From positions 96,598,001 to 96,662,000 of the forward strand of contig CM059431.1 in assembly GCA_030390025.1 (NCBI GenBank): a DNA stretch of 64,000 nucleotides. Direction: 5' to 3'. The position numbers were made by a program, and so were the translations under genes. This document shows, piece after piece, positions 9,120 through 59,129 of the stretch (position 1 is its first letter; each line of letters opens with the position of its first letter). The notes beneath the pieces are model-generated. The model searched no databases. It had not been told where the DNA came from and saw only the letters and a list, made by a program, of their open reading frames with translations. This DNA comes from Squalus acanthias (Eukaryota).

Positions 9120-10006
9120 GGGGTAAAAATTCAGTTGGTTGCGCCTCCCGTTAGCGCCTTAAGAGGGCGCTAATGGGGCGCAAAGCCGCTAACGCCCGGG
9201 CGCAGCGATGTTTGCGCCGCTCGGGAACTTAACTAGAGATTGTGCGGCGGCGCTAAACTTTACCGCTGCGACCACCTGCGCGCGCAGATTGTGACGTCAT
9301 TCCATGGTGCAACGCCCTTGTGGCGCCCCGGAGCGGAAATTGAGTGGCGCCCCCTGCCTTACCGCCTGGCGCATCCAACGACCAGAAGACTGGAACGCTA
9401 TCAATCGCTGTGGGGCTGGGGGGGGCGCTATTTAAAGGGGGCCTCTTCCTGCCTTTTATTGTTGGTGGCATTTTTGAACTACGCATTCTGAGAGAGAGAG
9501 GGAGAGACTTCTGGAGAGATTCAACGTTGTGTGAAGGAGTTTTGGGTACTGAGCAGCACTTTGCAGGTTCATTTTGATTTGCCATTCCTTGTATCGATTT
9601 AGCAGAGACTGTGGGAGCTGCACTCTGAGCTCTTTGCCTGGTACTCTCCATTGTTCTTTCCAGCACATTTGATGTGCAAGTCTCTCCAGGCCGAGAATCA
9701 AGGCTGCAATGAACAGGATGTGGATGGAAAGCAAGATTAACCATCCCCTTTAAGAACTGGCCATTGTGTGTGTGTTCCATTGCTGACTGACATTACATGA
9801 GCTTCGCCAGCGCTCTGAGTTAGCGCCTCACTCCTTGGCCTTTGCGCCTTAAGACAGGTGTGCAGCGCCTGATTTAGCGCTCCACTCACCTCCCGGGGCG
9901 GTAAAAGTGAAGTTTCCAGTCAGTGCCGATAATTAGCGCCAGGCGCTAATATTTGCATCCAGACGATATTTGCGCCCCAAATGGGGCGCGACCTAATTTT
10001 TCCCCC
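9120..10006. mobile_element. PIF/Harbinger-type MITE (887 bp) inserted in the CR1 endonuclease
   Basis: TIRs GGGGTAAAAATT / GGGGGAAAAATT and 3-bp TSD TTT; removal restores LKALCLNARS. Confidence 0.8.
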
Positions 10007-10655
10007 TTTGTGTCTTAATGCGAGGAGCATTCATAATAAGGTGGATGAATTAGCTGCGCAAATAGATGTAAACGGATATGATATAATTGGGATTACGGAG
10101 ACATGGCTCCAGGATGACCAAGTCTGGGAATTCAACATCCAGGGGTATTCAATATTCAGGAAGGACAGGAAAAAAGGAAAAGGAGATGGGGTAGCATTGC
10201 TGGTTAAAGAGGAGATTAACACAATAGTAAGGAAGGATATTAGCTCTGATGATGTGGAATCTGTATGGGCAGAGCTGAGAAATACCAAGGGGCAGAAAAC
10301 GTTAGTGGGAGTTGTATACAGACCCCCAAACAGTAATGCTGAGGTTGAGGATGGCAGTAAATGGGAAATTAGAGACGCGTGCAATAAGGGCACAGCAATT
10401 ATCATGGGTGACTTTAATCTACATACAGATTGGGCTAATCAAATTAGTAACAATACTGTGGAGGAGGAATTCCTAGAGTGTATACGGGATGGTTTCCTGG
10501 ACCAATATGTCGAGGAACCAACTAGAGATCAGGCCATCTTAGACTGGGTATTATGTAATGAGAAAGGATTAATTAGCAATCTTGTTGTGCGAGGCCCCTT
10601 GGGGAGGAGCGATCATAATATGATAGAATTCTTCATTAAAATGGAGAGTGAAGTA

Positions 10656-11055
10656 CAGGAAACTCTTTATTAACCGGCACCGACGGGACCGGCGTGGTGC
10701 CAGTTTATCGAAAGTACCGGATAACGGAGAGTTATATCTACCGAGGCTATTTTTAACAAAGAAAAATAAATAAATCAAGAAATGTGCAGTATACTTCCGA
10801 CAGCGCCAGGAGGCCGAGTAGTGGCACTTTTGAAAACTACCCCTACTGACTAAATCGGCGTTCGCGGACTCGGACTCGGGATCGGCAACATTGCCGGTTA
10901 TTTGAGAGGAGTTTTCGGAGTACTCGGCGTTCGCGGAGACTCGACTGCGACTCGGCAACATTGCCGGTTATTTGAGAGGAGTTTTCGGAAGATGATTTTT
11001 GCCGGTTAAGCGAGAATTCCGGATATTTGGGTGCCGGATAAACAAAAGTTTCCTG
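10656..11055. mobile_element. Tc1/mariner (Tigger/pogo-like) MITE, 400 bp
   Basis: TA TSD; 26-bp TIRs CAGGAAACTCTTTATTAACCGGCACC / CAGGAAACTTTTGTTTATCCGGCACC; removal restores CR1 MESEVVDSE as at 48255. Confidence 0.88.
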
Positions 11056-13469
11056 TAGTTGACTCAGAGACTAGGGTCCTGAATATAAATAAAGGAAACT
11101 ATGATGGTATGAGGCACGAGTTGGCTCGGATGGATTGGGGAACGTTACTTAAAGGGTTGACAGTGGATAGGCAATGGCAAACATTGAAAGATCGCATGGA
11201 TGAACTACAGAATTTGTTCATCCCTGTTCGGCATACAAATAAACAAAAAAGGTGACTCAACCGTGGCTAACAAGGGAAATTAGGGATAGCATAAGATCCA
11301 AGGAGAGGACATATAAATTGGCCAGAAAAAGCAGCAAACATGAGGATTGGGAGCAGTTTAGGATTCAGCAAAGGAGGACAAAGGGATTAATTAAGAGGGG
11401 GAAATAGATTATGAGAGTAAGCTTTCAGGGAACATAAAAACTGACTGTAAAAACTTGTATAGATATGTGAAGAGAAAAAGATTGGTGAAGTCAAGCGTAG
11501 GTCCCTTGCAGTCAGAATCAGGGGAAATTATAATGGGGAACAAAGAAATGGCTGACCAATTAAATACATACTTTGGTTCTGTCTTCACAAAGGAGGACAC
11601 AAATAACCTCCCAGAGATGTCGGGGAACATAGGGTTAAATGAGAGGGAGGAATTGAATGAAATCAGTATTTGTAGGGAAATGGTGTTAGGGAAATTGATG
11701 GGATTGAAGGCCGATAAATCCCCAGGGCCTGATAATCTACATCCTAGGGTACTTAAGGAAGTGGCCCTAGAAATAGTAGATGCATTGCTGGTCATCTTCC
11801 AAAATTCTATAGACTCTGGAACAGTTCCATTGGATTGGAGGGTAGCAAATGTAACCCCACTATTTGAAAAAGGTGGTAGAGAGAAAAAGGGGAATTATAG
11901 ACCGGTAAGTCTGACATCGGTAGTGGGGAAAATCCTAGAGTCCATTATAAAAGATGTAATAGCAGAGCACTTGGAAAACAGTGACAGGATCGGACAAAGT
12001 CAACATGGATTTACAAAAGGTAAATCATGCTTGACTAATCTACTGGAATTTTTTGAGGATGTAACTGGTAGAATGGATAAGGGAGAACCAGTGAATGTGG
12101 TGTATTTGGACTTTCAGAAGGCTTTCGATAAGGTCCCGCATAAGAGATTAGCGTGCAAAGTTAAAGCACACGGGATTGGGGGTAAGGTACTGTCTTGGAT
12201 AGAGAACTGGTTGGCAGACAGGAAGCAAAGAGTTGGAATAAACAGGTCTTTTTCCGAGTGGCAGGCAGTGACTAGTGGGGTACTGCAGTGATCGGTGCTA
12301 GGACCCCAGCTAGTCACAATAATCTAGATGACAGAACTAGATGTAATATCTCCAAGTTTGCAGACGACACAAAGCTGGGTGGGCGTGTGTGCTGTGAGGA
12401 GGATGCAGAGAAACTCCAGTATGATTTGGACAGGTTCGGTGATTGGGCAGATGCATGGCAGATGCAGTATTATGTGAATAAATGCGAGGTTATCCACTTC
12501 GGTGGCAAAAACAGGAAGACAGATTATTATCTGAACGGCAATAGATTGGGAAAAACGGAAGTGCAACGAGACCTGGGTGTCCTTGTGCACCAGTCGCTGA
12601 AGGTAAGCATGCAGGTGCAGCAGGCGGTTAAGAAGGCAAATGGTATGTTGGCCTTCATAGCGAGAGGATTCGAGTACAGGAGCAAGGATGTCTTGCTGCA
12701 GTTGTACAGGGCCTTGGTGAGACCACACCTTGAGTATTGTGTGCAGTTTTGGTCACCTTATCTGAGGAAGGATGTTCTTGCCATGGAGAGAGTGCAGCTG
12801 ATACCTGGGATGGCAGGAATGACGTATGAGGAGAGATTGGGTCGATTAGGCTTATATTCGCTAGAGTTTAGAAGAATGAGAGGGGATCTCATTGAAACTT
12901 ATAAAATTCTAACAGGACTAGACAGACTAGATGCAGGAAGGATGTTCCCGATGGCGGGGGAGTCCAGAACCAGGGGTCACAATCTAAGGATAAGGGGTAA
13001 GCCATTTCGGACTGAGATGAGGAGGAATTTCTTCACCCAGAGAGTGGTGAACCTGTGGAATTCTCTACCACAGAAGGCAGTTGAGGCCAATTCATTAAAT
13101 ATATTCAAGAAGGAGTTGGATATATTTCTTAAGGCAAAAGGGATCAAGGGATATGGGGAGAAAGCAGGGACAGGGTACTGAATTTGGATGATCAGCCATG
13201 ATCTCATTAAATGGTGGAACAGGCTCGAGGGGTCGAATGGCCTACTCCTGCTCCTATCTTCTATGTTTCTATGTTTACCAAGCTTCAGCACACCATAGAG
13301 CACCTTGTTGGGTAGTCTAGTATCAGGCATTCAGACTAAGTGACCAGTCAACTTAAACTGTGCCTTTACTATCATTGCCTCTACACTTGGCATTTTTGCT
13401 CTTTGGAGGTCCTAACTGTTCGGAATCTTGTACCGCCATCAAATTTTCATGAATTTTCTCTTCCACAGA

Positions 13470-15442: not shown

Positions 15443-15514
15443 CTTTCAACTTCAGCCTCTGGATTCTCAAGCTCCATATAATTGTCTTTTAGCTGCAGGA
15501 ATGTGAAGCCAAGT
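15443..15514 (-). CDS. ATP11A: ATP11A coding exon (72 bp) LGFTFLQLKDNYMELENPEAEVER
   Basis: tcgcag|A CTT ... AG|gtaagt. Confidence 0.93.
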
Positions 15515-17200
15515 CTGCGAACAAAAAAACCCAAATCACTAAACATCTGGGGTATAGATGTTTCAGTAAGAGTAGGGAAGGTGGTAAGAAAGGTGGAGGA
15601 GTAGCATTGTTAATCAAGGATAGTTTAACAGCGGCAGAAAGGCAGTTCGAGGGGGATCTGCCGTCTGAGGTAATATGGGCTGAAGTTAGAAATAGGAAAG
15701 GAGCGGTCACGTTGTTAGGAGTTTTCTACAGGCCCCCAAATAGTAATAGAGATGTGGAGGAAGAAATTGCAAAGCAGATTATGAATAGGTGTGGAGGTCA
15801 CAGAGTAGTTGTCATGGGTGACTTCAACTTTCCAAATATTGATTGGAACCTTTTTCGGTCAAACAGTTCGGATGGGATAGTTTTTGCACAGTGTGTGCAG
15901 GAGGGTTTCCTGACACAATATGTGGATAGGCCGACAAGAGGTGGGGCCACATTGGATTTGGTACTGGGTAATGAACCGGGCCAAGTGTTTGATTTGTATG
16001 TGGGAGAGCACTTTGGAGATAGTGACCACAATTCGGTGACTTTCACTATTGCAATGGAGAGAGATAGGGCCATACGGCAGGGCAGGGTTTATAATTGGGG
16101 ATGGGGTAATTATGATGCGATTAGGCAAGAATTAGGGGAACAGAAACTATCAGGGAAAGGCACAAACGAAAAGTGGAGCTTTTTCATGGAGCAATTACTG
16201 CGTGTCCTTGATAGGTATGTCCCTGTCAGGCAGGGAGGAAATGGCCGAGTGAGAGAACCATGGTTCACAAAAGAGGTTGAATGTCTAGTCAAGAGGAAAA
16301 AGGAAGCCTATGTAAGGATGAGAAAACAAGGTTCAGTTGGGTCGATTGAGGGGTACAAGGTAGCAAGGAATGAGCTAAAAAAAGAGCTTAGGAGAGCGAG
16401 GAGGGGGCATGAGAAGTCCTTGGCGGGTCGGATCAAGGAAAACCCCAAGGCTTTTTACTCTTATGTGAGAAATAAAAGAATGACCAGGGTGAGGGTAGGG
16501 CCGGTCAAGGACAGTAGTGGGAACTTGTGCATGGAGTCAGAAGAGATAGGAGAGGTGATGAATGAATACTTTTCGTCAGTGTTCACCGAGGAGAGGGGCC
16601 ATGTTTTTGAGGATGAGAGTGTGATAAAGATGGATAGGCTGGAGGAGGTAGATGTTCTGAGGGAAGATGTTTTAGCAATTTTGAAGAACCTGAGGGTCGA
16701 TAAGTCCCCTGGGCCAGATGGGATATATCCTAGGATTCTTTGGGAGGCAAGGGAGGAGATTGCAGAGCCTTTGGCTTTGATCTTTGGGTCCTCACTGCCC
16801 ACGGGGATGGTGCCAGAGGACTGGAGAATGGCGAATGTTGTTCCTCTCTTCAAGAAAGGAAATAGGAATGACCCTGGTAATTATAGGCCGGTTAGTCTTA
16901 GTTCGGTGGTTGGTAAGATAATGGAAAAGGTCCTGAGGGATAGGATTTATGACCATTTGGAAAGATGCAACTTAATCCGGGATAGTCGACACGGATTCGT
17001 GAAGGGTAAGTCTTGCCTAACAAATTTGATTGAATTCTTTGAGGAGGTAACTAAGTGTGTAGATGAAGGTAGAGCAGTTGATGTCGTATACATGGATTTT
17101 AGTAAGGCGTTTGATAAGGTTCATGGTCGGCTCATGAAGAAAGTAAGGAGTTGTGGGATAGAGGGAAATTTGGCCGATTGGATAAGTAACTGGCTATCTC

Positions 17201-17328
17201 TATATATGCTTTGGCGATTCTGTATCTATTTACTTCACCTGAGGAAGGGGCAATCGATAGCTCCGAAAGCTTGTGATTTCAAATAAAACTGTTGGACTAT
17301 AACCTGGTGTTGTGCGACCTCTCAATTT
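17201..17328 (+). mobile_element. Penelope-like terminal-repeat fragment with hammerhead motif, inserted into CR1 RT
   Basis: 6-bp TSD TATCTC (17195-17200, 17329-17334); near-identical to the arm of 30970-31192. Confidence 0.8.
17235..17276 (+). ncRNA. Minimal type I hammerhead ribozyme motif
   Basis: tcac CUGAGGA a ggggc-loop-gcucc GAAA gc UU guga; stem I 4 bp, palindromic AGCU stem III. Confidence 0.65.
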
Positions 17329-18429
17329 TATCTCATAGAAGGCAGAGGGTGGTGGTGGATGGAAAATTTTCAGACTGGAGACCAGTTACCAGCGGTGTGC
17401 CACAAGGGTCGGTGCTGGGTCCTCTGCTGTTTGTGATTTTTATCAATGACTTGGAGGAGGGGACTGAAGGGTGGATCAGTAAATTTGCTGATGACACCAA
17501 GATTGGTGGAGTAGTGGATGAGGTGGAGGGCTGTTGTAGGCTGCAAAGAGACATTGATAGGATGCAGAGCTGGGCCGAAAAATGGCAGATGGAATTTAAC
17601 CCTGATAAGTGCAAGGTGATTCATTTTGGTAGGGCAAATTTGAATAAGGATTACAGGGTCAACGGCAGGGTTCTGAGGAACGTGGAGGAACAGAGGGATC
17701 TGGGGGTTCATATCCACAGATCTCTGAAGGTTGCCACTCAAGTGGATAGAGCAGTAAAGAAGGCCTATAGTGTGTTAGCGTTTATTAACAAGGGGTTTGA
17801 GTTTAAGAACCGTGAGGTTATGCTGCAACTGTACAGGACCTTGGTGAGACCACATTTGGAATATTGTGTGCAGTTCTGGTCACCTCACTATAGGAAGGAT
17901 GTGGAAGCATTGGAAAGAGTGCAAAGGAGATTTACCAGGATGCTGCCTGGTTTGGGGGGGAGGTCTTATGAGGAAAGATTGAGGGAGCTAGGGCTTTTCT
18001 CTTTAGAGCGGAGGAGGATGAGAGGCGACTTAATAGAGGTTTATAAGATGATGAGGGGGTTGATAGAGTGGATGTTCAGAGACTATTTCCTCGGGTGGAT
18101 GTAGCTGTTACAAGGGGGCATAACTATAAGGTGCATGGGGGGAGATATAGAATGGATGTCCGAGGTAGATTCTTTACTCAGAGAGTGGTTGGGGTGTGGA
18201 ATGGACTGCCTGCTGTGATAGTGGAGTCGGACACTTTAGGAACTTTCAAGCGGTTATTGGATAAGCACATGGAGCACACCAGAATGATAGGGAGTGGGAT
18301 AGCTTGATCTTGGTTTCGGACAATGCTCGGCACAACATCGAGGTCCGAAGGGCCTGTACTGTGCTGTACTGTTCTATGTTCTATGTTCTATCCAACACAA
18401 AAATAATCAATCAGTGATCAATCCAGCAT

Positions 18430-28900: not shown

Positions 28901-29576
28901 CCATGCGAGAAAGACCAGAGAGAAGGCGGCAACAGTCGGTCAAGAGTCTGGACAATGACATCCAGAGAGAGAGCCACAAGTACCAGAGACCAGGAATACA
29001 CAGACGGGGTGCAGGGGGCATGAAAGGAGGATGTTCTACAATAAGAACTCCAAAAGCATTAGAAATAAGATGTTGCGATGACAACCCTGCAGCACATTGC
29101 TACAATGCCAGAAGCGAAGTGTAAAAGGTCACATTTCCATTCCTAGTGAGCAAGGACGAAGCTTACAAGGGCTGTTTGTGATGCTGAGCGCAGCAGAAAT
29201 ATCTGCTGAAGCCTGAGAATCCTCACAGGTTTACCAACAGAACGTGAAGCTCATTCAACCTGCCACTGAAATAAGTGCGGAGAGGAACTGTCATGAAAGA
29301 AACCAGACCTTGGTTAGTGAAAGAGTTTGTGCAAATCACGGGAGGCACAGCCTGCTTTTCAATTTGTTTTTAGTGTCCATGGAATCCATTCAGAATTCAC
29401 CGATTAAATATTCCCTCTAATCATAGAATGGTTACAGCACAGAAAGAGGCCATTCGGCCTGTCGAGCCTGTGCCGAGGGAAAGTGGTAATAGGAGCACTG
29501 CAAACCTTCAATGAACCAGGTAACAGGTAACAGACATCAATCCAGGTCACCCGATCGTGACTGACAGCTGGAACAT

Positions 29577-30169
29577 CACACCCGGGTACGAGCTCTCCCG
29601 ACACCCGGGTACGAGCTCTCCCGACACTCGGGTACGAGCTCTCCCGACACACCCGGGTACGAGCTCTCCCGACACACCCGGGTACGAGCTCTCCCGACAC
29701 ACCCGGGTACGAGCTCTCCCGACACACCCGGGTACGAGCTCTCCCGACACACCCGGGTACGAGCTCTCCCGACACACCCGGGTACGAGCTCTCCCGACAC
29801 ACCCGGGTACGAGCTCTCCCGACACACCCGGGTACGAGCTCTCCCGACACACCCGGGTACGAGCTCTCCCGACACACCCGGGTACGAGCTCTCCCGACAC
29901 ACCCGGGTACGAGCTCTCCCGACACACCCGGGTACGAGCTCTCCCGACACACCCGGGTACGAGCTCTCCCGACACACCCGGGTACGAGCTCTCCCGACAC
30001 ACCCGGGTACGAGCTCTCCCGACACACCCGGGTACGAGCTCTCCCGACACACCCGGGTACGAGCTCTCCCGACACACCCGGGTACGAGCTCTCCCGACAC
30101 ACCCGGGTACGAGCTCTCCCGACACACCCGGGTACGAGCTCTCCCGACACACCCGGGTACGAGCTCTCC
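29577..30169. repeat. 25-bp minisatellite CACACCCGGGTACGAGCTCTCCCGA, about 24 nearly perfect copies
   Basis: Direct inspection. Confidence 0.97.
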
Positions 30170-30284
30170 TAGGCTAATGTTTCCATTTGGTATCTTTAAC
30201 TTTGAGTGAGAAGCTGTTCTGTGTACGACCAAAGTGCCTGTAATCGAGGATTGAGCCACCTCACATGCTGGACTATCAGCCCAT

Positions 30285-30500
30285 CGATCAGAGAATCTTA
30301 CAGCACAGAAGGAGGCCATTCAGCCCATCATGCCTGTACCGGCTCTTTGAAAGAGCTTTCCAATTAGTCCCACTCCCCCTGCTCTTTCCCCATAGCCCTG
30401 AAAATTTCTCCTTTTCAAGTATTTATCCAATTCCCTTTTGAAAGTTACGATTGAATCTGCTTCCACCGCCCTTTCAGGCAGCACATTCCAGATCACAACA
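30285..30500 (-). mobile_element. CR1 3' end fragment
   Basis: ORF 30320..30529 WNVLPERAVEA...QGYGERAG. Confidence 0.8.
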
Positions 30501-33823: not shown

Positions 33824-34021
33824 CTGTCCCAATTCTTCATTCAGGTCCGATGTGTTCACTGTTGGCCCCTCACGAATTTCATTGTCAAACATTTCTTCAT
33901 CCCAAGTAATGAAATAGGAACCAAGAAACTTCTGCATCTCCACGGTGACGTACATGGAGACCGGAATGATGTAATTGAAAAGAACCATAAAGGCCAGAAA
34001 ATCTGTAAACGATGACAAGAA
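33824..34021 (-). CDS. ATP11A: ATP11A coding exon (198 bp) [28 protein letters not shown]...[11 protein letters not shown]4
   Basis: ttctag|TTC ... CAG|gttggt; PVSM motif. Confidence 0.95.
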
Positions 34022-41929: not shown

Positions 41930-42915
41930 GCTTTTCCCCTGCTCTGCATTTGCTTAAAAGCTGTTCATCTCCAGCATCTTTCAGTTCAGCCGAAAGGTCA
42001 TCGACCTGAAACGTTGGGGGGAATTTTGCCAGCCCTGGGGAGGCGGGTTTGGAGGCGGGACTGCCGGGAAAATGGCAGAATCTGGGGGCGGGTACCCATC
42101 CCACCCCAACCCGCCTCCGTGCCATCTTCCCAGGAGGCGGGTACCCGACCCGCGCCAGGTCCCGTCTCCTCGAGGCGGGAAGGGGATTAGTGCCAATTAA
42201 CTGCCTGTTAACAGGTAGTTAACAGGTTTTTTTTTGGCTAATACCTATTTTCAGCCCTGAAGTATGGGCTTCCCGACGGCTCCGAACCTCGCCAGGGTCA
42301 GTGAGGTGAGCCGTGGGTCTGCGGGGGTCGGAGGGGCCGAGATGTCCGGTGTGCAGGTGAGTGATGGGTGCACGTGTGAAGAGGTAAGTGTGTGAGGTGT
42401 GTTTAAAATGTTTTAACAAGTTTTACTTACCTTTACTTCTTCCTGCAGGCTTCCTCCCTTCAGGTCTCGGAGTCCCTCAGCTCACCGGCACAGAAAGCAG
42501 AATGGCCGCTGAACTGTCAAAAGCTGCAGCCTTTTGCTTTCTGCTCAGGAGGGCTCTCTAACTCAGCCTGAGTTACAGGACTGAACTTAGAGGACAGATT
42601 GTCAGTGTTTGACAGCTTCACAGAGCCATCAAACAATGACAATTCATCTGTCAAAAGCTCTTGACAGATGAAATGTCACTCGCTGACGTCACTTGTAACT
42701 GGCTTTCCCTTAATTGGCCTGCTTGGCCCGCTGGGTCAATCAAGGGAAAATAGCGTGGGTTGGCCACAAGTCGATGGAGGTGGGACTAAAACCCGACAAG
42801 TGGGAGTCCCGCCTCCAAAAGCTCCCCATTGGCAAAATCCAGCCCGTTAACTCTGTTTCTCTCTCCACAGATGCTGCCTGACCTGCAGAGTGTTTCCAGC
42901 ATTTTCCATCTTTTA
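41930..42915 (+). mobile_element. Decayed Penelope-like terminal repeat (same family as 44655-45156) split by a MITE
   Basis: 41983-42015 and 42849-42905 join into the sequence seen intact at 45023-45115. Confidence 0.75.
42016..42845. mobile_element. PIF/Harbinger-type MITE (830 bp)
   Basis: TIRs GGGGGGAATTTTGCCA / GGGCTGGATTTTGCCA; 3-bp TSD GTT. Confidence 0.85.
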
Positions 42916-43727: not shown

Positions 43728-43792
43728 CGTAAATGTTCTGGGTATTTTTTAAAGTTGCCCCTCTCAGCAGCACATTCTCTGCTCCCAAAGGC
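43728..43792 (-). CDS. ATP11A: ATP11A coding exon (65 bp) PLGAENVLLRGATLKNTQNIY
   Basis: ttccag|G CCT ... G|gtaaaa; LLRG..LKNT motif. Confidence 0.93.
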
Positions 43793-44100
43793 CTGGAATA
43801 AAGTTAAAAATTATTGAGGAAATAAAGCCATAAAAAAAATTGCAATTTTTAGATGACTATAAACAGATTCGTAGGCCTCAGGCCAGAGGAGCTCTTCAGC
43901 CAGGATGAGCTTCACCTAAACAAAGGCAGATCACTTTCACTCACAGACAGTGTCTGTACAGCAATAGGGGACGAGCTAAACTAGTCAGGCAGGGGAGGGC
44001 CAGTTCTCTAGCAAATGCGGCAGGAAGAGCAAGGCTCCAGAAGGTATATTAAGGAGACGGGGGGGGGGGAGGGTCTATAGTGCAGATAGGAGAGAGGGGA

Positions 44101-45156
44101 ATAACAACAGAAAACGCTGGAAAAACTCGGCAGGCGAGGCAGCATCCGTGGAGAGAGAAACAGAGTTAACGTTTCAGGTCGAAGACCTTTCATCAGAACT
44201 GGAAATAGCAGGAAATGAAATAGATTTAAGGCAAGGATAAAGCTGGGAAAAGGGGGAGGGGATGAAAGAACAAAAGGAGAGATTAAGAGACATTAAGCGA
44301 CATTAAGAGATGATCAAGGCAAGAGGTGGTGTTAATGTGACAGGTTGAGGCTAAAAGAAGTGTGAAATGCACTGGCAGAATGAAGGACAGCTGCCAGCTT
44401 CTAGGAGGGGAAAAAAAAGGTGGGGGGGCAAACAAAAGGGTGGATGAAAAAATAAAATATAAATGTGATTGGGGCTGAGGTTATGATCTAAAATTGTTGA
44501 ACTCGATAGAGTCCAGAGGGCTGTAGCGTGCCTAAACAAAAGATGAGGTGCTGTTCCTCGAGCTTACGCTGCGCCTGTCGCCTGTCACTTTAATTCACCG
44601 CTTCACTCTCACTCTGACCTCACCGTCCTCGGCCTATTACACTGTTCCACGGAAGCGCAGCGTAAGCTCGAGGAACAGCACCTCATCTTTCGTTTAGGCA
44701 CGCTACAGCCCTCTGGACTCAATATCGAGTTCAACAATTTTAGATCATAACCTCAGCCCCAATCACATTTATATTTTATTTTTTCATCCACCCTTTTGTT
44801 TGCCTCCCCCCGCCTCTTTTTTTCCCTCCTAGAAGCTGGCAGCTGTCCTTCATTCTGCCAGTGCATTTCACACTTCTTTTAGCCTCAACCTGTCACATTA
44901 ACACCACCTCTTGCCTTGATCATCTCTTAATGTCTCTTAATCTCTCCTTTTGTTCTTTCATCCCCTCCCCCTTTTCCCAGCTTTATACTTGCCTTAAATC
45001 TATTTCATTTCCTGCTATTTCCAGTTCTGACGAAAGGTCTTCGACCTGAAACGTTAACTCTGTTTCTCTCTCCACGGATGCTGCCTCGCCTGCTGAGTTT
45101 TTCCAGCGTTTTCTGTTGTTATTTCGGATTTCCAGCATCTGCAGTATTTTGCTATC
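44101..45156 (+). mobile_element. Fold-back Penelope-like element with inverted terminal repeats and a GIY-YIG C-terminal remnant (44574-44750)
   Basis: About 470-bp inverted arms (44100-44574 / 44655-45123); 15-bp TSD ATAGGAGAGAGGGGA; peptide PVACHFNSPLHSHSDLTVLGLLHCSTEAQRKLEEQHLIFRLGTLQPSGLNIEFNNFRS*. Confidence 0.9.
45023..45059 (+). ncRNA. Minimal hammerhead ribozyme motif (mirror copy on the minus strand at 44164-44200 with core CUGAUGA)
   Basis: aguu CUGACGA a agguc-uuc-gaccu GAAA cg UU aacu; palindromic ACGU stem III. Confidence 0.7.
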
Positions 45157-45379
45157 ATAGGAGAGAGGGGACATGGAGAGATAGGCCACCAGACTTGGGG
45201 GAGACAGGCCACCCCAAGGTGCTGTTCCTGTCGGTTTGAAAGAATTCCCAATTTTCTTGTGCCAATTTAGCAGGTTCATAATTTAAATATTTGCTATACA
45301 GGAATATTTAATAAATATTAAATGCAGATCTGAAAACAGACATTAAATATTTAAGGAGGATAAACTGGATTCCACTTAC

Positions 45380-45430
45380 CTTGCAATAGGCCCCTCTGTC
45401 TCATGGTAAATATTGATCCGGCCAACAAAA
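45380..45430 (-). CDS. ATP11A: ATP11A coding exon (51 bp) FVGRINIYHETEGPIAR
   Basis: ttacag|T TTT ... AG|gtaagt. Confidence 0.92.
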
Positions 45431-45684
45431 CTGTAAGTAAAAATATCCCAAACATGGCCGTTAGCAGCGTGATTTGTGGGAAACAGGGAATGAGTCCCGA
45501 TTGCAGAGGTTTCCCAGCACTGCCCGGGGGGGGCGGGGGTGGTGCAGGAATCGGAAAAATCTCCAAGGCCTCGCCCTTCTCCCATTACATTTAGTGGGCC
45601 CGGGACGGCCGCAGGTGCCGTTGCCAATCTGTAGTGAAGGTGCAAAACATTTCCAGCCCCCAACATGCTTCAAACAGAAGAGAC

Positions 45685-46210
45685 AGGGGTGCTGGGGCAG
45701 GGGCGTGCTGGGGCAGGGGGGGGTGGTGCTGGGGCGGGGGGGGTGGTGCTGGGGCGGGGGCGGGGGGGTACTGGGGCAGGGGGGGTGCTGGGGCGGGGGG
45801 GTGCTGGGGCGGGTGGGTGGTGCTGGGGGGGGGGGTGCTGGGGCGGGGGTGGTGCTGGGGCGGGTGGGGTGGTGCTGGGGGGGGGGGTGCTGGGGCGGGG
45901 GTGGTGCTGGGGCAGGGGGGGTGCTGGGGCAGGGGGGGTGCTGGGGCGGGTGGGGTGGTGCTGGGGGGGGGGGGTGCTGGGGCGGGGGTGGTGCTGGGGC
46001 GGGTGCTGGGGCGGGGGGGGTACTGGGGCGGGGGGGGGGGGTGCTGGGGCGAGGGGGGGGGGTGCTGGGGCGGGGGGTGGTGCTGGGGCGGGGGTGGTGC
46101 TGGGGGCGGGTGCTGGGGCGGGGGGGGGGGTGGTGCTGGGGCAGGGGGGGTACTGGGGCGGGGGGGGGGTGCTGGGGCGAGGGAGGGGGGGGGGTGCTGG
46201 GGCGGGGGCT
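45685..46210. repeat. G-rich degenerate tandem repeat (GGTGCTGGGGC-Gn)
   Basis: Direct inspection; dozens of G runs of 4 or more. Confidence 0.95.
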
Positions 46211-46680
46211 GACCTGGGGAGATTCAGGTTTAACCACACTCCATACTTAAAGCAAAATGTGCAACAGCTTTTGAGAGTCATGGATAAATATTTGAAAAAT
46301 AAAAATGTGAAAGGACAGGGAGTGGGACTAATTGGATCGTTCTTTCAGAGACATGCACAGGCACGATGGGCTGAATGACCGCCTTCTGTGCTGGAAGATT
46401 CTGTAATTCTGTTCGGGCTTTTTCCACAAAGACTGAGAACGGTTTGGGCTGACCTGGCAGCGGCTTTGATTCCAGGAGAAGGTGAATAATGATGGACAAT
46501 TTGGCTAGTCGACAGATGATAATGAGAGGATAGAAATTCAAAATGATCTCAAATAGAACTTATAGGAGAGCTTAGAAAAATATTTCTTCACACAGGGTAG
46601 TTAGACTGAGAAATTTTCTGTCACAAACTGAGCCCATGAATTCTTCGAAAAAATTAGATAGTTTCTTGAAAAAAAGGATT

Positions 46681-47734: not shown

Positions 47735-47888
47735 CTGAAGGAAAGAACGTAAATCTGTAAACATCTCTCTCACATTCAAATCCTGAGACACGAGTTCCAT
47801 CCAGCAATGTCCTTAACTATGTTGCTGCACAGTGGAATATTCAGTCACTAGCACAGCACTTGGGTAATTAGCTGAACACAACACAAAC

Positions 47889-50537
47889 AGAGAAATAACA
47901 AAGGGCAGAAAACGTTAGCGGGAGTGATATATAGACCTCCAAACAGTAATGCGGAGGTTGGGGATGGCATTAAAAGGGAAATTAGAGAAGCGTGCAATAA
48001 GGGCACAGCAGTCATCATGGGTGACTTTAATCTACATATAGATTGGGCTAACCAAATTAGTAACAATACTGTGGAGGAGGAATTCCTGGAGTGTTTACGG
48101 GATGGTTTCCTGGACCAATATGTCAAGGAACCAACCAGAGATCAGGCCATCTTCGACTGGGTATTATGCAATGAGAAAGGATTAATTAGCAATCTTGTTG
48201 TGCGAGGCCCCTTGGGGCGGAGCAATCATAATATGATAGAATTCTTCATTAGGATGGAGAGTGAAGTAGTTGACTCAGAGACTAGGGTCCTGAATTTAAA
48301 TAAAGGAAACTACGATGGTATGAGGTGCGAGTTGGGTAGGATTGATTGGGGAATGTCACTCAAAGGGTTGACGGTGGATAGGCAATGGCAAACATTCAAA
48401 GACCGCATGGACGAACTACAGAATTTATTCATCCCAGTTTGGCATAAGAATAAAACAAAAACGGTGACTCAACCATGGCTAACAAGGGAAATTAGGGATA
48501 GCATAAGATCCAAGGAGAGGGCATATAAATTGGCCAGAAAAAGCAGTAACCCTGAGGATTGGGAGCAGTTTAAGATTCAACAAAGGAGGACAAAGGGATT
48601 CATTAAGAAGGGGAAAATAGAATACGAGAGTAAGCTTGCAGGGAACATAAAAACTGACTGTAAAAGCTTTTATAGATATGTGAAGAGAAAAAGATTAGTG
48701 AAATCAAGCATAGGTCCCTTGCAGTCAGAATCAGGGGAACTTATAATGGGGAACAAAGAAAAGTCAGACCAATTAAATACATATTTTGGTTCTGTCTTCA
48801 CAAAGGAGGACACAAATAACCTCCCAGAGATGTTGGGGAACATAGGATCTGATGAAAGGGAGGAACTGAAAGAAATCAGTAGTTGTAGGGAAATGGTGTT
48901 AGGAAAATTGAAGGCCGATAAATCCCCAGGGCCGGATAATCTACATCCTAGGGTACTTAAAGAAGTGGCCCTAGAAATAGCAGATGCATTGCTGATCATC
49001 TTCCAACATTCAATGGAATCTGGAACAGTACCCATGGATTGGAGGGTAGCTAATGTTACCCCACTATTCAAAAAGGGTGGTAGAGAGAAAACGGGGAATT
49101 ACAGACCGGTAAGCCTGACATCGCTGGTGGGGAAAAATGCTAGTGTCCATTATAAAAGATGTAATAGCTGAGCACTTGGAAAACAGTGATAGGATCGGAC
49201 AAAGTCAACATGGATTTACAAAAGGTAAATCATGCTTGACTAATCTACTGGAATTTTTTGAGGATGTAACTGGTAAAATAGATAAGGGAGAACCAGTGGA
49301 TGTGGTGTATTTGGACTTCCAAAAGGCTTTTGATAAGGTCCCGCATAAGAGATTAGCGTGTAAAGTTAAGGCACATGGGATTGGGGGCAAGGTATTGACT
49401 TGGATAGAGAACTGGTTGGCAGACAGAAAGCAAAGAGTTGGAATAAACGGGTCTTTTTCCGAGTGGCAGGCAGTGACTAGTGGGGTACCGCAGGGATCGG
49501 TCCTTGGACCCCAGCTATTCACAATATATATTAATGATCTAGACAAGGGAACTAGATGTAATATCTCCAAGTTTGCAGACGACACAAAGCTGGGTGGGCG
49601 TGTGTGCTGTGAGGAGGATGCTGAGAAACTCCAGGATGATTTGGACAGGTTGGATGATTGGGCAGAAGCATGGCAGATGCGATATAACGTAGATAAATGC
49701 GAGGTTATCCACTTTGGTGTCAAAAACAGGAAGGCAGATTATTATCTGAATGGCAATAGATTGGGAGAAGGGGAAGTGCAACGAGACCTGGGTGTCCTTG
49801 TGCACCAGTCGCTGAAGGTAAGCATGCAGGTGCAGCAGGCGGTTAAGAAGGCAAATGGTATGTTGGCCTTCATAGCGAGAGGGTTTGAGTACAGGAACAA
49901 GGATGTCTTGCTGCAGTTGTACAGGGCCTTGGTGAGACCACACCTTGAGTACTGTGTGCAGTTTTGGTCGCCTTATCTGAGGAAGGATGTTCTTGCCATG
50001 GAAGGAGTTCAGCGAAGATTCACAAGGCTGATACCTGGGATGGCAGGAATGACGTATGAAGAGAGATTTGGTCGATTGGGCTTATACTCGCTGGAGTTTA
50101 GAAGAATGAGAGAGGATCTCATTGAAACTTATAAAATTCTGACAGGACAGGACAGGACAGGACAGGACAGGACAGGACAAACTAGATGCAGGAAGGATGT
50201 TCCCGATGGTCGGGGAGTCCAGAACCAGGGGTCACAGTCTAAGGATAAGGGGTAAGCCATTTAGGACAAAAATGAGGAGGAATTTCTTCACCCAGAGAGT
50301 GGTGAACCTGTGGAATTCTCTGCCACAGAAGGCAGTCGAGACCAATTCATTAAATATATTCAAGAAGGAGTTGGATATATTTCTTAAGGCTAAAGGGATC
50401 AAGGGATATGGGGAGAAAGCAGGGACAGGGTACTGAATTTGGATGATCAGCCATGATCGCATTGAATGGCGGAGCAGGCTAGAGGGGCCGAATGGCCTAC
50501 TCCTGCTCCTATCTTCTATGATTCTATGATTCTATGA
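47889..50537 (+). mobile_element. 5'-truncated young CR1 (same subfamily as 7625-13274)
   Basis: ORFs 47924..49171, 49137..50255 and 50197..50436; (ATTCTATG)n tail. Confidence 0.93.
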
Positions 50538-52891: not shown

Positions 52892-54660
52892 GGGACAGGA
52901 GGAATTAATAATGGGGAACGGGGAAATGGCAGAGACCCTGAACAAATATTTTGTATCTGTCTTCACGGTAGAAGACACTAACAACATCCCAATAATGGAC
53001 AATCAAGGGGCCACAGGGAGGGGGAAACTAAAGACAATCACTATCACTAAGGAAAAAGTACTTGGTAAAATAATGGGACTAAAAGACGACAAGTCCCCTG
53101 GACCAGATGGCCTGCATCCCAGGGTCTTAAAAGAAGTGGCTGCAGAGATAGTGGATGCATTGGTTGCAATGTACCAAAATTCCCTGGACTCTGGAGAGGT
53201 CCCACCCGATTGGAAAACCGCAAATGTAACACCCCTATCTAAGAAAGGAGGGAGACAGAAAGCAGGAAACTATAGACTAGTTAGCCTAACATCTGTCGTT
53301 GGGAAAATGCTGGAGTCCTTCATTATGGAAGCAGTAGCAGGGCATTTTGAAAATCATTATGCAGTCAAACAGAGTCAGCATGGTTTTATGAAAGGGAAAT
53401 CATGTTTAACAAATTTGCTGGAGTTCTTTGAGGATGTTATGAGCAGGGTGGATAAAGGGTGAGCCAGTAGATGTGGTGTATTTGGATTTCCAGAAGGCAT
53501 TCGATAAAGTGCCACATAAAAGGTTACTGCATAAGATAAGAGCTCACGGAGTTGGGGGTAATATATTAGCATGGATAGAGAATTGGCTAACTAACAGAAA
53601 GCAGAGAGTCGGGATAAATGGGTCATTTTCCAGTTGGCAAACGGTAACTAGTGGGGTGCCACAGGGATCGGTGCTGGGGCCTCAACTATTTACTATCTAC
53701 AATAATGACTTGGATGAAGGGACTGAGTGTAATGTAGCCATGTTTGCAGATGATACAAAGATGGGTGGGAAAGCAAGTTGTGCAGAGGACTCAAAGAATC
53801 TGCAGAGGGATATAGACAGGCTAAGTGAGTTGGCAAACATTTGGCAGATGGAGTATAATGTGGGAAAGTGCATGTTATCCACTTTGGCAGGAAAAATAAA
53901 AAAGCAAATTATTATTTAAATGGAGAGAGATTACAAAATGCTACAGTTCAGAGGGACCTGGGGGTCCTTGTGCATGAAACACAAAAAGTTAGCATGCAGG
54001 TGCAGCAAGTATTCAAAATGGCAAATGGAATGTTGGCCTTTATTGCAAAGGGGTTGGAGTATAAAAGCAGGGAAGTCCTGCTAAAACTGTACAGGGTATT
54101 GGTGAGACCACACCTTGAGTACTGCGTACAGTTTTGGTCTCCTTATTTAAGGAAGGATATACTTGCATTGGTGGCAGTTCAGAGACGATTCACACGGTTG
54201 ATTCCTGAGGTGAGGGGGTTGACTTATGAAGAAAGGTTGAGCCTATACCCATTGGAATTTAGAAGGATGAGAGGTGATCTTATTGAAACATATAAGATAC
54301 TGAGGGGGCTCGACAAGGTAGATGCAGAGAGGATGTTTCCCCTCGTGGGGAAATCTCGAACTCGGGGCCATAGTTGCAGAATAAAGGGTCGCCCTTTTAG
54401 AACTGAGATGAGGAAGAATTTCTTCTCTCAGAGGGTCATAAATCTATGGAATTCTCTGCCCCAGAGAGCCGTGGAGGCTGGGTCATTAAATATATTTAAG
54501 GTGGAGATAGACAGATTTTTACAAGATAAGGGAGTGAAGGGTTATGGGGAGCGGGCTGGGAAGTGGCTTTGAGCCCAAGATCAGCCATGATCTTATTGAA
54601 TGGCGGAGCAGGCTCGAGGTGCCAAGTGGCCTATTCCTGATCCTATTTCTTATGTTCTTA
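52892..54660 (+). mobile_element. 5'-truncated CR1
   Basis: ORFs 52911..53462, 53473..53919 and 53868..54572. Confidence 0.92.
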
Positions 54661-57025: not shown

Positions 57026-59129
57026 GTGTCAGAGCAATGGGAGGCATTCAAGGAGGAGATCCGGAGGGTTCAGACCAAACATGTGCCCTTAAAGAAAAAA
57101 GGTGGGACGAACAAATTTAGAACCCCCTGGATGTCTAGAGACATACAGGGTAGGATAAAGAAAAAAAGGGAGGCTTATGACCGATACCGAGGGCTAAATA
57201 CTCCAGAATCTTTAGAGGAGTACAGAAAGTGCAGGGGTGCAATTAAAAAGGATATTAGGAAAGCAAAGAGAGAGCATGAAAAATTCTTGGCAAGTAAAAT
57301 CAAGGAAAACCCAAAGATGTTTTATAAATATATTAAGAGTAAGAGGATAACTAAATAAAGGGTAGGGCCTATTAGAGATCATGAGGGTAATCTGTGTGTG
57401 GAGGCGGGAGACGTCGGTCGGGTTCTTAATGAATACTTTGCGTCTGTTTTCACAAAGGAGAGGGGCGAAGCAGACATTGCTATCAGGGAGGAGGAGTGTG
57501 AAATATTAGATGAAATAAACAGTGAGAGAGGAAGTATAAAGGGGTTTAGCAGCTTTAAAAGTGGATAAATCCCCAGGCCTGGATGAAATGTACCCCAGGC
57601 TGTTAAGCGAAGCAAAAGAGGAAATAGCAGAGGCCCTGACCATCATTTTTCAATCTTCTCTGGCTTCAGGTGTGGTGCCGGAGGACTGCTAATGTGGTAC
57701 CCTTGTTTAAAAAGGGAGAAAAGGATAGACTGAGTAATTACAGACCAGTCAGCCTAACCTCGGTGGTGGGAAAATTATTGGAAAGAATTCTGAAGGACAG
57801 GATAAATCTTCATTTAGAAAGACACGGATTAATCAAGGATAGTCAGCACAGATTTGTTAAGGGAAGGTCGTGTCTGACAAACTTGATTGAATTTCTTGAG
57901 GAGGTAACAAGGAGGGGAGATGAGGGTAGTGCATTTGATGTAGTGTATATGGACTTTAGCAAGGCTTTTGATAAGGTTCCACATGGCAGACTGGTCACGA
58001 AGTTAAAAGCCCATGGATCCAGGGCAAAGTATCAAGTTGGATTCAAAACTGGCTCGGAGACAGGAAGCAGAGGGTAATGGTTGATGGGTGTTTTTGTGAC
58101 CGGAAGGCTGTTTCCAGTGGGGTTCTGCAGGGCTCAGTACTAGGTCCCTTGCTTTTTGTGGTATATATCAATGATCTAGACTTGAATATAGGGGGTATGA
58201 TTAAGAAGTTTGCAGATGATACTAAAATCGGCTGTGTGGTTGATACTGAAGGAGGAAGCTGTAGACTGCAGGAAGATATCAATAAATTGGTCAGGTGGGC
58301 AGGACAGTGGCAAATGGAATTCAATCCGGAGAAGTGTGAGGTAATGCATTTGGGGAGGGCTAACAAGGAAAGGGAATACACATTAAATGGTAGGACACTG
58401 AGTAGTGTAGAGGAACAAAGGGACCTTGGAGTGCATGTCCACAGATCCCTGAAGGTAGCAGGCCAAGTAGATAAGGTGGTTAAGAAGGCATTCGGAATGC
58501 TTGCCTTTATTAGCCATGGCATAGAATACAAGAGCAGGGGGGTTATGCTTCAATTGTATCAAACACTAGTTAGGCCTCAGCTAGAGTACTGCGGCAGTTC
58601 TGGTCACCATATTACAGGAAAGATGTGATTGCACTAGAGAGGGTACAGAGGAGATTTACAAGGATGTTGCCAGGAGTAGAGAATCTTAGCTATGAGGAAA
58701 GACTGGATAGGCTGGGTCTGTTTTCCTTGGAACAGAGGAGGCTGAGGGGAGACCTTATTGAGGTGTATAAAATTATGAGGGGCATAGATAAAGTGGATAG
58801 AAAGGACCTATTTCCCTTAGCAGAGGGGTCAAAAACCAGGGGGCACAGATTTAAAGTAATTGGTGGAAGGTTTAGAGGGGATTTGAGGGGAAATTTCTTC
58901 ACCCAGAGGGTTGTGGGGGTCTGGAACTCACTGCCTGAAAGGGTGGTAGAGGCAAGAACCCTAACCACATTTAAAAAGTACTTGGATGTGCACTTGGGAT
59001 GCTCTAACCTGCAGGGCTATGGACCAAGAGCTGGGAAGTGGGATTAGGCTGGATAGCTCTTTGTTGGCCGGCACGGACACGATGGGCCAAAATGGCCTCC
59101 TTCCGTGCTGTAACTTTCTATGATTCTAT
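57026..59129 (+). mobile_element. 5'-truncated CR1
   Basis: ORFs 57670..58077, 58077..58628 and 58625..59047; TTCTATGATTCTAT tail. Confidence 0.92.

Follow-up and report, generated by a model that had tools for sequence, protein, structure and literature searches.

Canonical Penelope-like elements with a C-terminal endonuclease (EN+) are the closest described relatives of the inverted structure analysed here, which lies in a 64,000-nt stretch of Squalus acanthias DNA (the window). The sections of two accounts drawn on here (Arkhipova et al. 2013, PMC3846280; Craig et al. 2021, PMC8557442) describe head-to-head inverted 5'-truncated copies, a tail of 30-40 nt at one end, a target-site duplication (TSD) of variable length and a hammerhead in the pseudo-LTR, and the shark locus shares all of these traits. 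It differs in possessing no full open reading frame and in having a purine-rich target rather than a (TA)n tract. Its TSD of 15 bp compares with 8-10 bp in the rotifer copies of those sections; two fold-back loci from metagenome contigs (L002 and L021) have flanking repeats of 17-18 nt. A second relevant system is the minimal type I hammerhead of metazoan Penelope-like elements, for which excerpts of Cervera and de la Pena 2014 (PMC4209133) give a helix I of 4-5 bp, an unpaired base lying between positions 9 and 10.1, palindromic positions 15.2-16.2 without a loop 3, and opposite-strand pairs about 100-700 bp apart. The shark motifs follow this plan, one on each strand of the window with 822 nt between them, and depart from it in a helix II of 5 bp closed by A-U instead of the conserved G10.1-C11.1 pair and in the triplet GUU.

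Two further systems bear on the comparison. PAc, the Poseidon element of Anolis (Frangieh et al. 2024, PMC11167929, cited in part), resembles the shark element in that two reverse transcriptase (RT) start sites define its tail and in that its open reading frame begins within the hammerhead, the ATG of which survives in the left-arm core of the shark copy; the dispensability of the PAc ribozyme for insertion is a further shared point. Non-LTR retrozymes, according to portions of bioRxiv 10.64898/2026.07.22.740005 and PMC7761336, likewise possess a type I hammerhead derived from Penelope-like element pseudo-LTRs and have been reported in a chondrichthyan. However, a retrozyme consists of units repeated directly in tandem and has two ribozymes on the same strand, whereas the shark locus is an inverted pair. 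Assignment to the retrozymes was rejected for this reason, as it requires at least two same-strand hammerheads in direct repeats and the window contains one per strand. Every feature of the locus is already published, including the inverted 5' copy with a tail, the extra nucleotide after A9, the palindromic stem III and the opposite-strand motif pairs. The reading favoured here, with a probability of roughly 85%, is that of a dead 5'-truncated copy of an abundant shark Penelope-like element, which arose by a single insertion after the split from a related organism and whose hairpin is neutral and whose ribozyme is inactive.

The locus is a 5'-truncated copy of a Penelope-like retroelement in an intron of the shark ATP11A gene, on the minus strand. 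It is enclosed by a TSD, ATAGGAGAGAGGGGA, found on the plus strand at 44086-44100 and identically at 45157-45171; a contig of a related species begins to fit at the first base of the right copy. The length of this repeat is strictly 14-15 bp, because its final A doubles as the first base of the left arm. The left arm (44100-44574, minus strand, 475 nt) is an inverted, tail-less copy of the 3' part of the element and is sense in the ATP11A pre-mRNA; its endonuclease piece is frameshifted by a 2-nt gap. An unpaired spacer of 80 nt (44575-44654, plus strand), the predicted hairpin loop, is the 5'-most surviving piece of the endonuclease coding region, and the right arm (44655-45123, plus strand, 469 nt) contains the endonuclease end, the untranslated region and a hammerhead. 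A tail of 33 nt (45124-45156, plus strand) is found on the right arm only. Aligned end to end, the arms exhibit 458 matches, 7 substitutions (7/465, or 1.5%) and 3 indels of 2, 2 and 10 nt. The sequence-only reading of this DNA, which had described near-identical inverted arms of about 470 bp around an 80-bp spacer, a 15-bp TSD and a 33-bp tail limited to the right arm, is thus confirmed in outline; the tail is refined by the family end at 45153, which would make the family tail about 30 nt with 3 extra bases at this locus.

Sequence identity places the insertion in ATP11A, encoded on the minus strand, as had been proposed. At 33824-34021 lies an exon that shares 98% identity with a shark phospholipid-transporting ATPase IH (ATP11A), a protein that aligns exon by exon along the minus strand of the window. 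ATP11C was considered as the host gene and rejected: the best identity (98%) is to the shark IH record, and the named matches are to IH/ATP11A or carry no paralog designation, the exceptions being a record of 80% identity labelled 11C, which ranked top by E-value, and another labelled IF. A comparison of a 21-residue exon with the PDB did not separate ATP11A from ATP11C; a longer exon did separate them. The intron (43793-45379) is 1,587 nt long, of which the element takes 1,071 nt, and it lies between two small exons, one of 51 nt upstream (45380-45430, minus strand) and one of 65 nt downstream (43728-43792, minus strand), in agreement with the earlier placement. Distances of 256 nt to the donor and 307 nt to the acceptor leave the true splice sites outside the hairpin.

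The coding remnant of the element is a stretch of 58 codons with a stop (44574-44750, plus strand) that takes in the spacer and the beginning of the right arm and represents the C-terminal remnant of a Penelope-type GIY-YIG endonuclease. A Pfam scan of the remnant alone returned 0 families. The 58 residues nevertheless have 401 relatives at E<=0.001, and a GIY-YIG match, mostly below the Pfam cut-off, was found in 9 of the 14 relatives scanned. More specifically, the remnant aligns at 50-56% identity to the last ~55 residues of three proteins (P0099, P0100 and P0126) in which RVT_1 is followed by GIY-YIG, with the match at the extreme C-terminus. Because the remnant matches the C-terminus behind RT and GIY-YIG domains, the shark copy represents the 3' portion of an EN+ Penelope-like element of the canonical kind, and the arrangement that defines this group, a C-terminal GIY-YIG downstream of a telomerase-like RT, is present by homology. 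The 5' truncation, the inverted 5' copy, a tail of 30-40 nt at one end and the TSD are characteristic of the same group. The GIY-YIG remnant recognised in the sequence-only reading therefore holds through its match to RT and GIY-YIG proteins, and the Penelope-like identity of the element, the minimal hammerheads and the inverted end with its tail are likewise upheld.

A CX2-5CxxC linker is found in 4 of the 6 homologs inspected (P0030, P0099, P0100 and P0126), in a region that is truncated away in the shark copy. In the sections of PMC8557442 drawn on here, this linker is assigned to Neptune and Nematis and is absent from Penelope/Poseidon. The shark element is therefore probably Neptune-type, and PAc, as a Poseidon, belongs to another clade. 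Three predicted host proteins among the sequences recovered, P0009, P0015 and P0089 (GPCR, DUF4518 and NYAP, respectively), contain a Penelope endonuclease tail, and are probably gene models that exonise Penelope remnants.

Two minimal type I hammerhead motifs were identified by core pattern and covariance model, one inside the pre-mRNA (44164-44200, minus strand) and one antisense to ATP11A (45023-45059, plus strand). Each has a 4-bp stem I, an extra A, a 5-bp stem II closed by A-U, an ACGU palindrome and a GUU site. The 37-nt motif of the two arms differs solely at the free position N7; with 7 substitutions over 465 nt, about 0.6 changes would be expected in the 37-nt core, which is intact in both arms. 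The core pattern has 2 matches in the 64-kb window, where 0.03 would be expected, and two or more matches occurred in 0 of 100 shuffles. When 33 of 125 motifs from metagenome contigs were used to construct a covariance model, it recovered both shark motifs at E ~4e-8, the next match in the window being at 0.11, in a test that is partly circular because the metagenome loci were found with a pattern written from the shark core. An Rfam scan of the window at E<=10 returned no hammerhead and six weak unrelated matches. The Rfam hammerhead models expect a helix III, and this result is consequently not evidence against a hammerhead. Thus, the complete cores with an extra A and a loopless ACGU stem that had been read at these two positions stand on the pattern count, and a covariance model from other loci finds both.

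The motifs possess the CUGANGA and GAAA cores, a helix I within 4-5 bp, the extra nucleotide after A9, palindromic positions 15.2-16.2 and an NUH triplet that define the minimal type I class; GUU is listed among the active hammerhead triplets in the part of PMC3138052 drawn on here. At the conserved G10.1-C11.1 pair, A-U is found in both arms and in an older copy at 41985-42015. Among 69 distinct metagenome motifs, A10.1-U11.1 occurs in 1 and G-C in 41, and U at position 17 occurs in 5 of 125 metagenome motifs under a search pattern that permits only C or U. Both A10.1-U11.1 and U17 lower hammerhead activity. The A-U pair is a deviation within the minimal type I class and not an exclusion from it. 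In the shark family, G at position 10.1 (45035) accounts for about 28-45% of depth with the base pair retained, and among the positions listed this one-sided A>G change at 45035 is the only stem change, unaccompanied by a compensating one. In other families, stem II has four pairs and one extra nucleotide in 34 of 69 distinct motifs, and zero or two extra nucleotides in none. Across 30 distinct aligned motifs from other families, 90.3% of stem positions are paired and 17 two-sided changes are found against 6.0 in shuffled alignments (matched in 0 of 500), an excess that is inflated by relatedness. The comparative alignment is thus supportive of the hammerhead structure in other families.

The abundance of the family was revealed by aligning contigs of four sequencing runs to the spacer, right arm, tail and right flank. 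In one DNA run (X1), 44,593 contigs fit the element region, and summed depth over the ribozyme and tail reaches millions against 10.8 on the unique flank, a ratio that is not a copy number. Clearly, the shark Penelope family is of very great size, and a related organism (organism B) has it to the same extent. Family copies end behind 45153 with diverse flanks in 4 of 4 runs, and behind 45125 in run X8, which is presumably RNA. The tail lies between these end points, a pattern that the paired RT start sites defining the tail of Anolis PAc, in the section of PMC11167929 drawn on here, would predict. The junction between the tail and the flank of this particular locus was recovered in run X1; contigs of run X5 did not cover the unique flank. 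A 908-nt contig of organism B fits only 45157-45480, from the first TSD base onward, and then continues for at least 69 letters that are unlike the tail. Organism B therefore seems to lack the insertion, this contig break at the TSD being read as an empty site. Divergence between the arms (1.5%) is below that between the shark and organism B flanks (13/318, or 4.1%), which fits an insertion after the split.

Several observations on the contigs concern other copies. Hundreds of contigs in the three DNA-type runs start to fit exactly at the 5' edge of the hammerhead (45022-45028), and their flanks are diverse and AT-rich. This could reflect truncation of many copies at that point, at a transcript start or splice site, or subfamilies that have only the ribozyme and tail in common. 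Several metagenome copies fold back exactly at this edge. Backward joints from the 3' end of the element were also found, from 45125 to 44604 (X8) and from 45156 to 45026 (X1 and X5), with 17 and 26 letters between; these correspond to units of about 540 and 157 nt repeated directly in tandem, that is, partial tandems or retrozyme-like repeats elsewhere in the genome.

A single retrotransposition event would account for the anatomy of the locus. The GIY-YIG endonuclease would cut the target with a stagger that gives rise to the 15-bp TSD, and reverse transcription would begin at the distal of the two family start sites, tail included, and would copy about 580 nt. A second copy of opposite polarity would then be initiated by a snap-back of 80 nt or by priming at the second nick, and would have no tail because it ends at the proximal site; for this step the sections of PMC3846280 drawn on here favour self-priming on the antisense template. 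The hammerheads would be passengers of the pseudo-LTR. Arms that differ, as these do by 10 events, could also result from two separate insertions placed head to head, or from a local inverted duplication at a later time. However, one TSD encloses both arms, which largely refutes such a history; furthermore, the arms share letters that are in the minority in the family (for example C at 45087, where G accounts for 86% of X1 depth), the asymmetry of the tail fits the two 3' ends of the family, and at other loci the inverted copy is always upstream (34 versus 0). An origin in two events is accordingly very improbable. Long inverted arms together with a TSD could also recall a non-autonomous, MITE-like fold-back DNA transposon or an assembly artefact, but the arms are not terminal (given the 33-nt tail) and are built from the 3' end of a retroelement; moreover, they differ at 10 places, unlike an artefactual mirror, and the tail-flank junction is recovered in run X1. 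These explanations are improbable in the extreme, and the single insertion of a 5'-truncated Penelope-like element is retained.

The fold-back shape is not peculiar to this locus. A hammerhead-core scan of metagenome contigs yielded at least 120 loci; 32 were set aside, and the 88 retained are flanked on each side by 250 nt or more and have distinct core regions. An inverted copy of the ribozyme region was found within 300 nt upstream in 34 of the 88, among which a few are probably the same site in two assemblies, and the control arrangements (inverted downstream, direct upstream and direct downstream) were found in 0 of 88 each. This stricter test with controls supersedes a looser self-BLAST count of 41/120 fold-backs from the set of at least 120 loci. 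The whole design recurs in L002, where arms of 187 nt surround a spacer of 50 nt, the tail measures 27 nt and the flanking repeat 17 nt. Fold-back copies with TSDs are also described in rotifers in the portions of PMC3846280 drawn on here. The fold-back is thus a routine insertion product of Penelope-like elements and not a special device. In L021 (1042-1461), a fold-back has an extra stretch of about 28 nt on its inverted (left) side, between the 18-nt flanking repeat and the arm.

The proximity of opposite-strand arms within one intron raises the question of what the transcript may do. During transcription of ATP11A the antisense arm would be made first, and the arms would zip into a duplex of about 460 bp that encloses the sole sense ribozyme. 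In the predicted fold, 461 bases are paired arm to arm, including 37 of 37 nt of the pre-mRNA-strand hammerhead; freeing the hammerhead from the hairpin would cost 62 kcal/mol, and the mean unpaired probability of the ribozyme within it is predicted to be 0.0006. The claim that a minus-strand ribozyme within the ATP11A pre-mRNA is locked by its own antisense arm is therefore supported by prediction, and the lock is credible as physics in the modelled structure. The differences between the arms are unpaired, scattered and uncompensated, and hence show no sign of selection, though the numbers are small.

Whether this lock silences anything is another matter. It may be that the sense hammerhead is able to cut the ATP11A pre-mRNA, as a protein-aided monomer or as a trans dimer with family transcripts, and that the antisense arm prevents the cutting. 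The intact core on the pre-mRNA strand, the complete predicted sequestration by an arm that is transcribed first, and the abundance of a family that could supply trans partners are all consistent with this possibility. Further, the PAc hammerhead cleaves when the protein of the element is present, and the ribozyme is dispensable for insertion, in the sections of PMC11167929 drawn on here; inactivity of a monomer in the test tube need not hold in vivo, and this protein-assisted cleavage is the main point against regarding the shark ribozyme as inactive. On the other side, the part of PMC4209133 drawn on here reports one minimal monomer with no detectable cleavage and dimers of low activity, and the Anolis RNA-seq described in that portion of PMC11167929 had no reads starting or ending at the cut site. 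In the left arm folded without the antisense arm, stem II has a predicted probability of 0.81 and stem I of 0.0, and in a model without tertiary terms two strands fold best at -19.3 kcal/mol, against -9.7 kcal/mol for the active dimer, which is the less stable. The closing A-U pair and the H17 nucleotide are also uncommon. Cleavage as a dimer, which had been suggested, is contradicted in cis, since with one motif per strand no transcript can form a cis dimer. A self-silencing ribozyme is accordingly quite unlikely. Of that proposal, the sequestration is retained as a prediction; silencing adds little to it, because the published monomer showed no detectable cleavage and stem I is predicted not to form even without the antisense arm, which leaves little activity to silence. 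The favoured reading thus holds that the ribozyme is probably a dimer-dependent minimal form that would be inactive with or without the hairpin, and that the hairpin would be a neutral by-product in slow decay.

A different role for the duplex concerns RNA processing signals. At the 5' boundary of the ribozyme, a pyrimidine tract followed by CAG (44199-44225, minus strand) resembles a splice acceptor, as judged by a score matrix, and is buried in the predicted hairpin. The antisense arm also places an AAUAAA in the pre-mRNA (44775-44780, minus strand) that is predicted to be paired in the hairpin, and an AUUAAA (44589-44594) lies in the loop. By hiding the acceptor-like site and the AAUAAA, the fold-back might make sense-oriented intronic insertions tolerable. 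Scored with a matrix from 15 true ATP11A acceptors, whose own leave-one-out scores have a median of 5.3 (range -1.4 to 10.5), the site reaches 4.5. Relative to 2,975 other AGs this value falls within the top 1%, and among the 109 AGs of the intron it ranks third. The unpaired probability of the tract is predicted to be 0.59 without the antisense arm and 0.001 with it. The site would start a putative cryptic exon at 44198 with a donor-like GTGAGT at 43944, and this exon of 254 nt contains stop codons that it would bring into ATP11A. In keeping with a splice signal at this edge, the D. virilis Penelope intron ends at hammerhead helix I in the section of PMC4209133 drawn on here, and a sister subfamily is also pyrimidine-rich there, as seen in loose contig ends before 45018. 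Against these points, the matrix was trained on just 15 sites, the same intron has an unused AG that scores higher (7.2), acceptor-like sites of this kind are frequent, scores at the equivalent position are poor in most metagenome families, and a single locus is involved. Masking of this kind is consequently unlikely. A wider form of the idea is similarly doubtful, namely that the fold-back is a built-in safety catch in which one duplex buries the acceptor-like site, the AAUAAA and a protein-assisted ribozyme. Sense intronic insertions would then survive mainly as fold-backs, and editing or decay of the arms could slowly unmask a poison exon, for instance in ATP11A. No paper stating this idea was found in the open-access literature.

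The predicted fold contains perfect duplex runs of up to 102 bp. Long perfect duplex runs are good ADAR substrates, whereas access of Dicer to a short-lived nuclear intron in a vertebrate is doubtful. In the neutral reading of the hairpin, ADAR editing at some level would precede degradation of the intron. The locus resembles the intronic inverted-repeat ADAR substrates described in the portion of PMC10636886 drawn on here in that it would form a long near-perfect intramolecular duplex in pre-mRNA, and Penelope is there among the two most edited repeat families of Xenopus tropicalis. However, that editing is not tied to fold-back copies in that portion. Of the two fates that had been put forward, the hairpin is by analogy a plausible ADAR target, and its processing by Dicer is unlikely.

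As one of many copies with a shape already described, the single locus matters little. It is nonetheless a clean and apparently young vertebrate example in which the two ends can be read and for which a relative probably offers the empty site, and is thus useful with respect to the origin of the inverted copy and the tail. If masking were true genome-wide, it would help to explain the tolerance of Penelope-like elements in introns, and these elements would be a major source of ADAR substrates in sharks.

The surrounding gene contains other repeats. An older, decayed copy of a related Penelope subfamily lies in the next intron (41933-42015 and 42846-42906, plus strand), in antisense orientation to ATP11A. 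Its hammerhead core has mutations, and an insert of about 830 bp (42016-42845) interrupts it beside the cleavage site. This insert has 16-nt terminal inverted repeats and is MITE-like, with ends that are presumably Harbinger-like. Long LINE remnants with endonuclease and RT, which we take to be CR1-like, are found in other ATP11A introns (9933-13181, 15493-18104, 47876-50255, 52893-54572 and 57640-59047). Upstream of the 51-nt exon lies a G-rich tandem repeat (45685-46250), and positions 29400-30300 hold a minisatellite that is long and nearly perfect.
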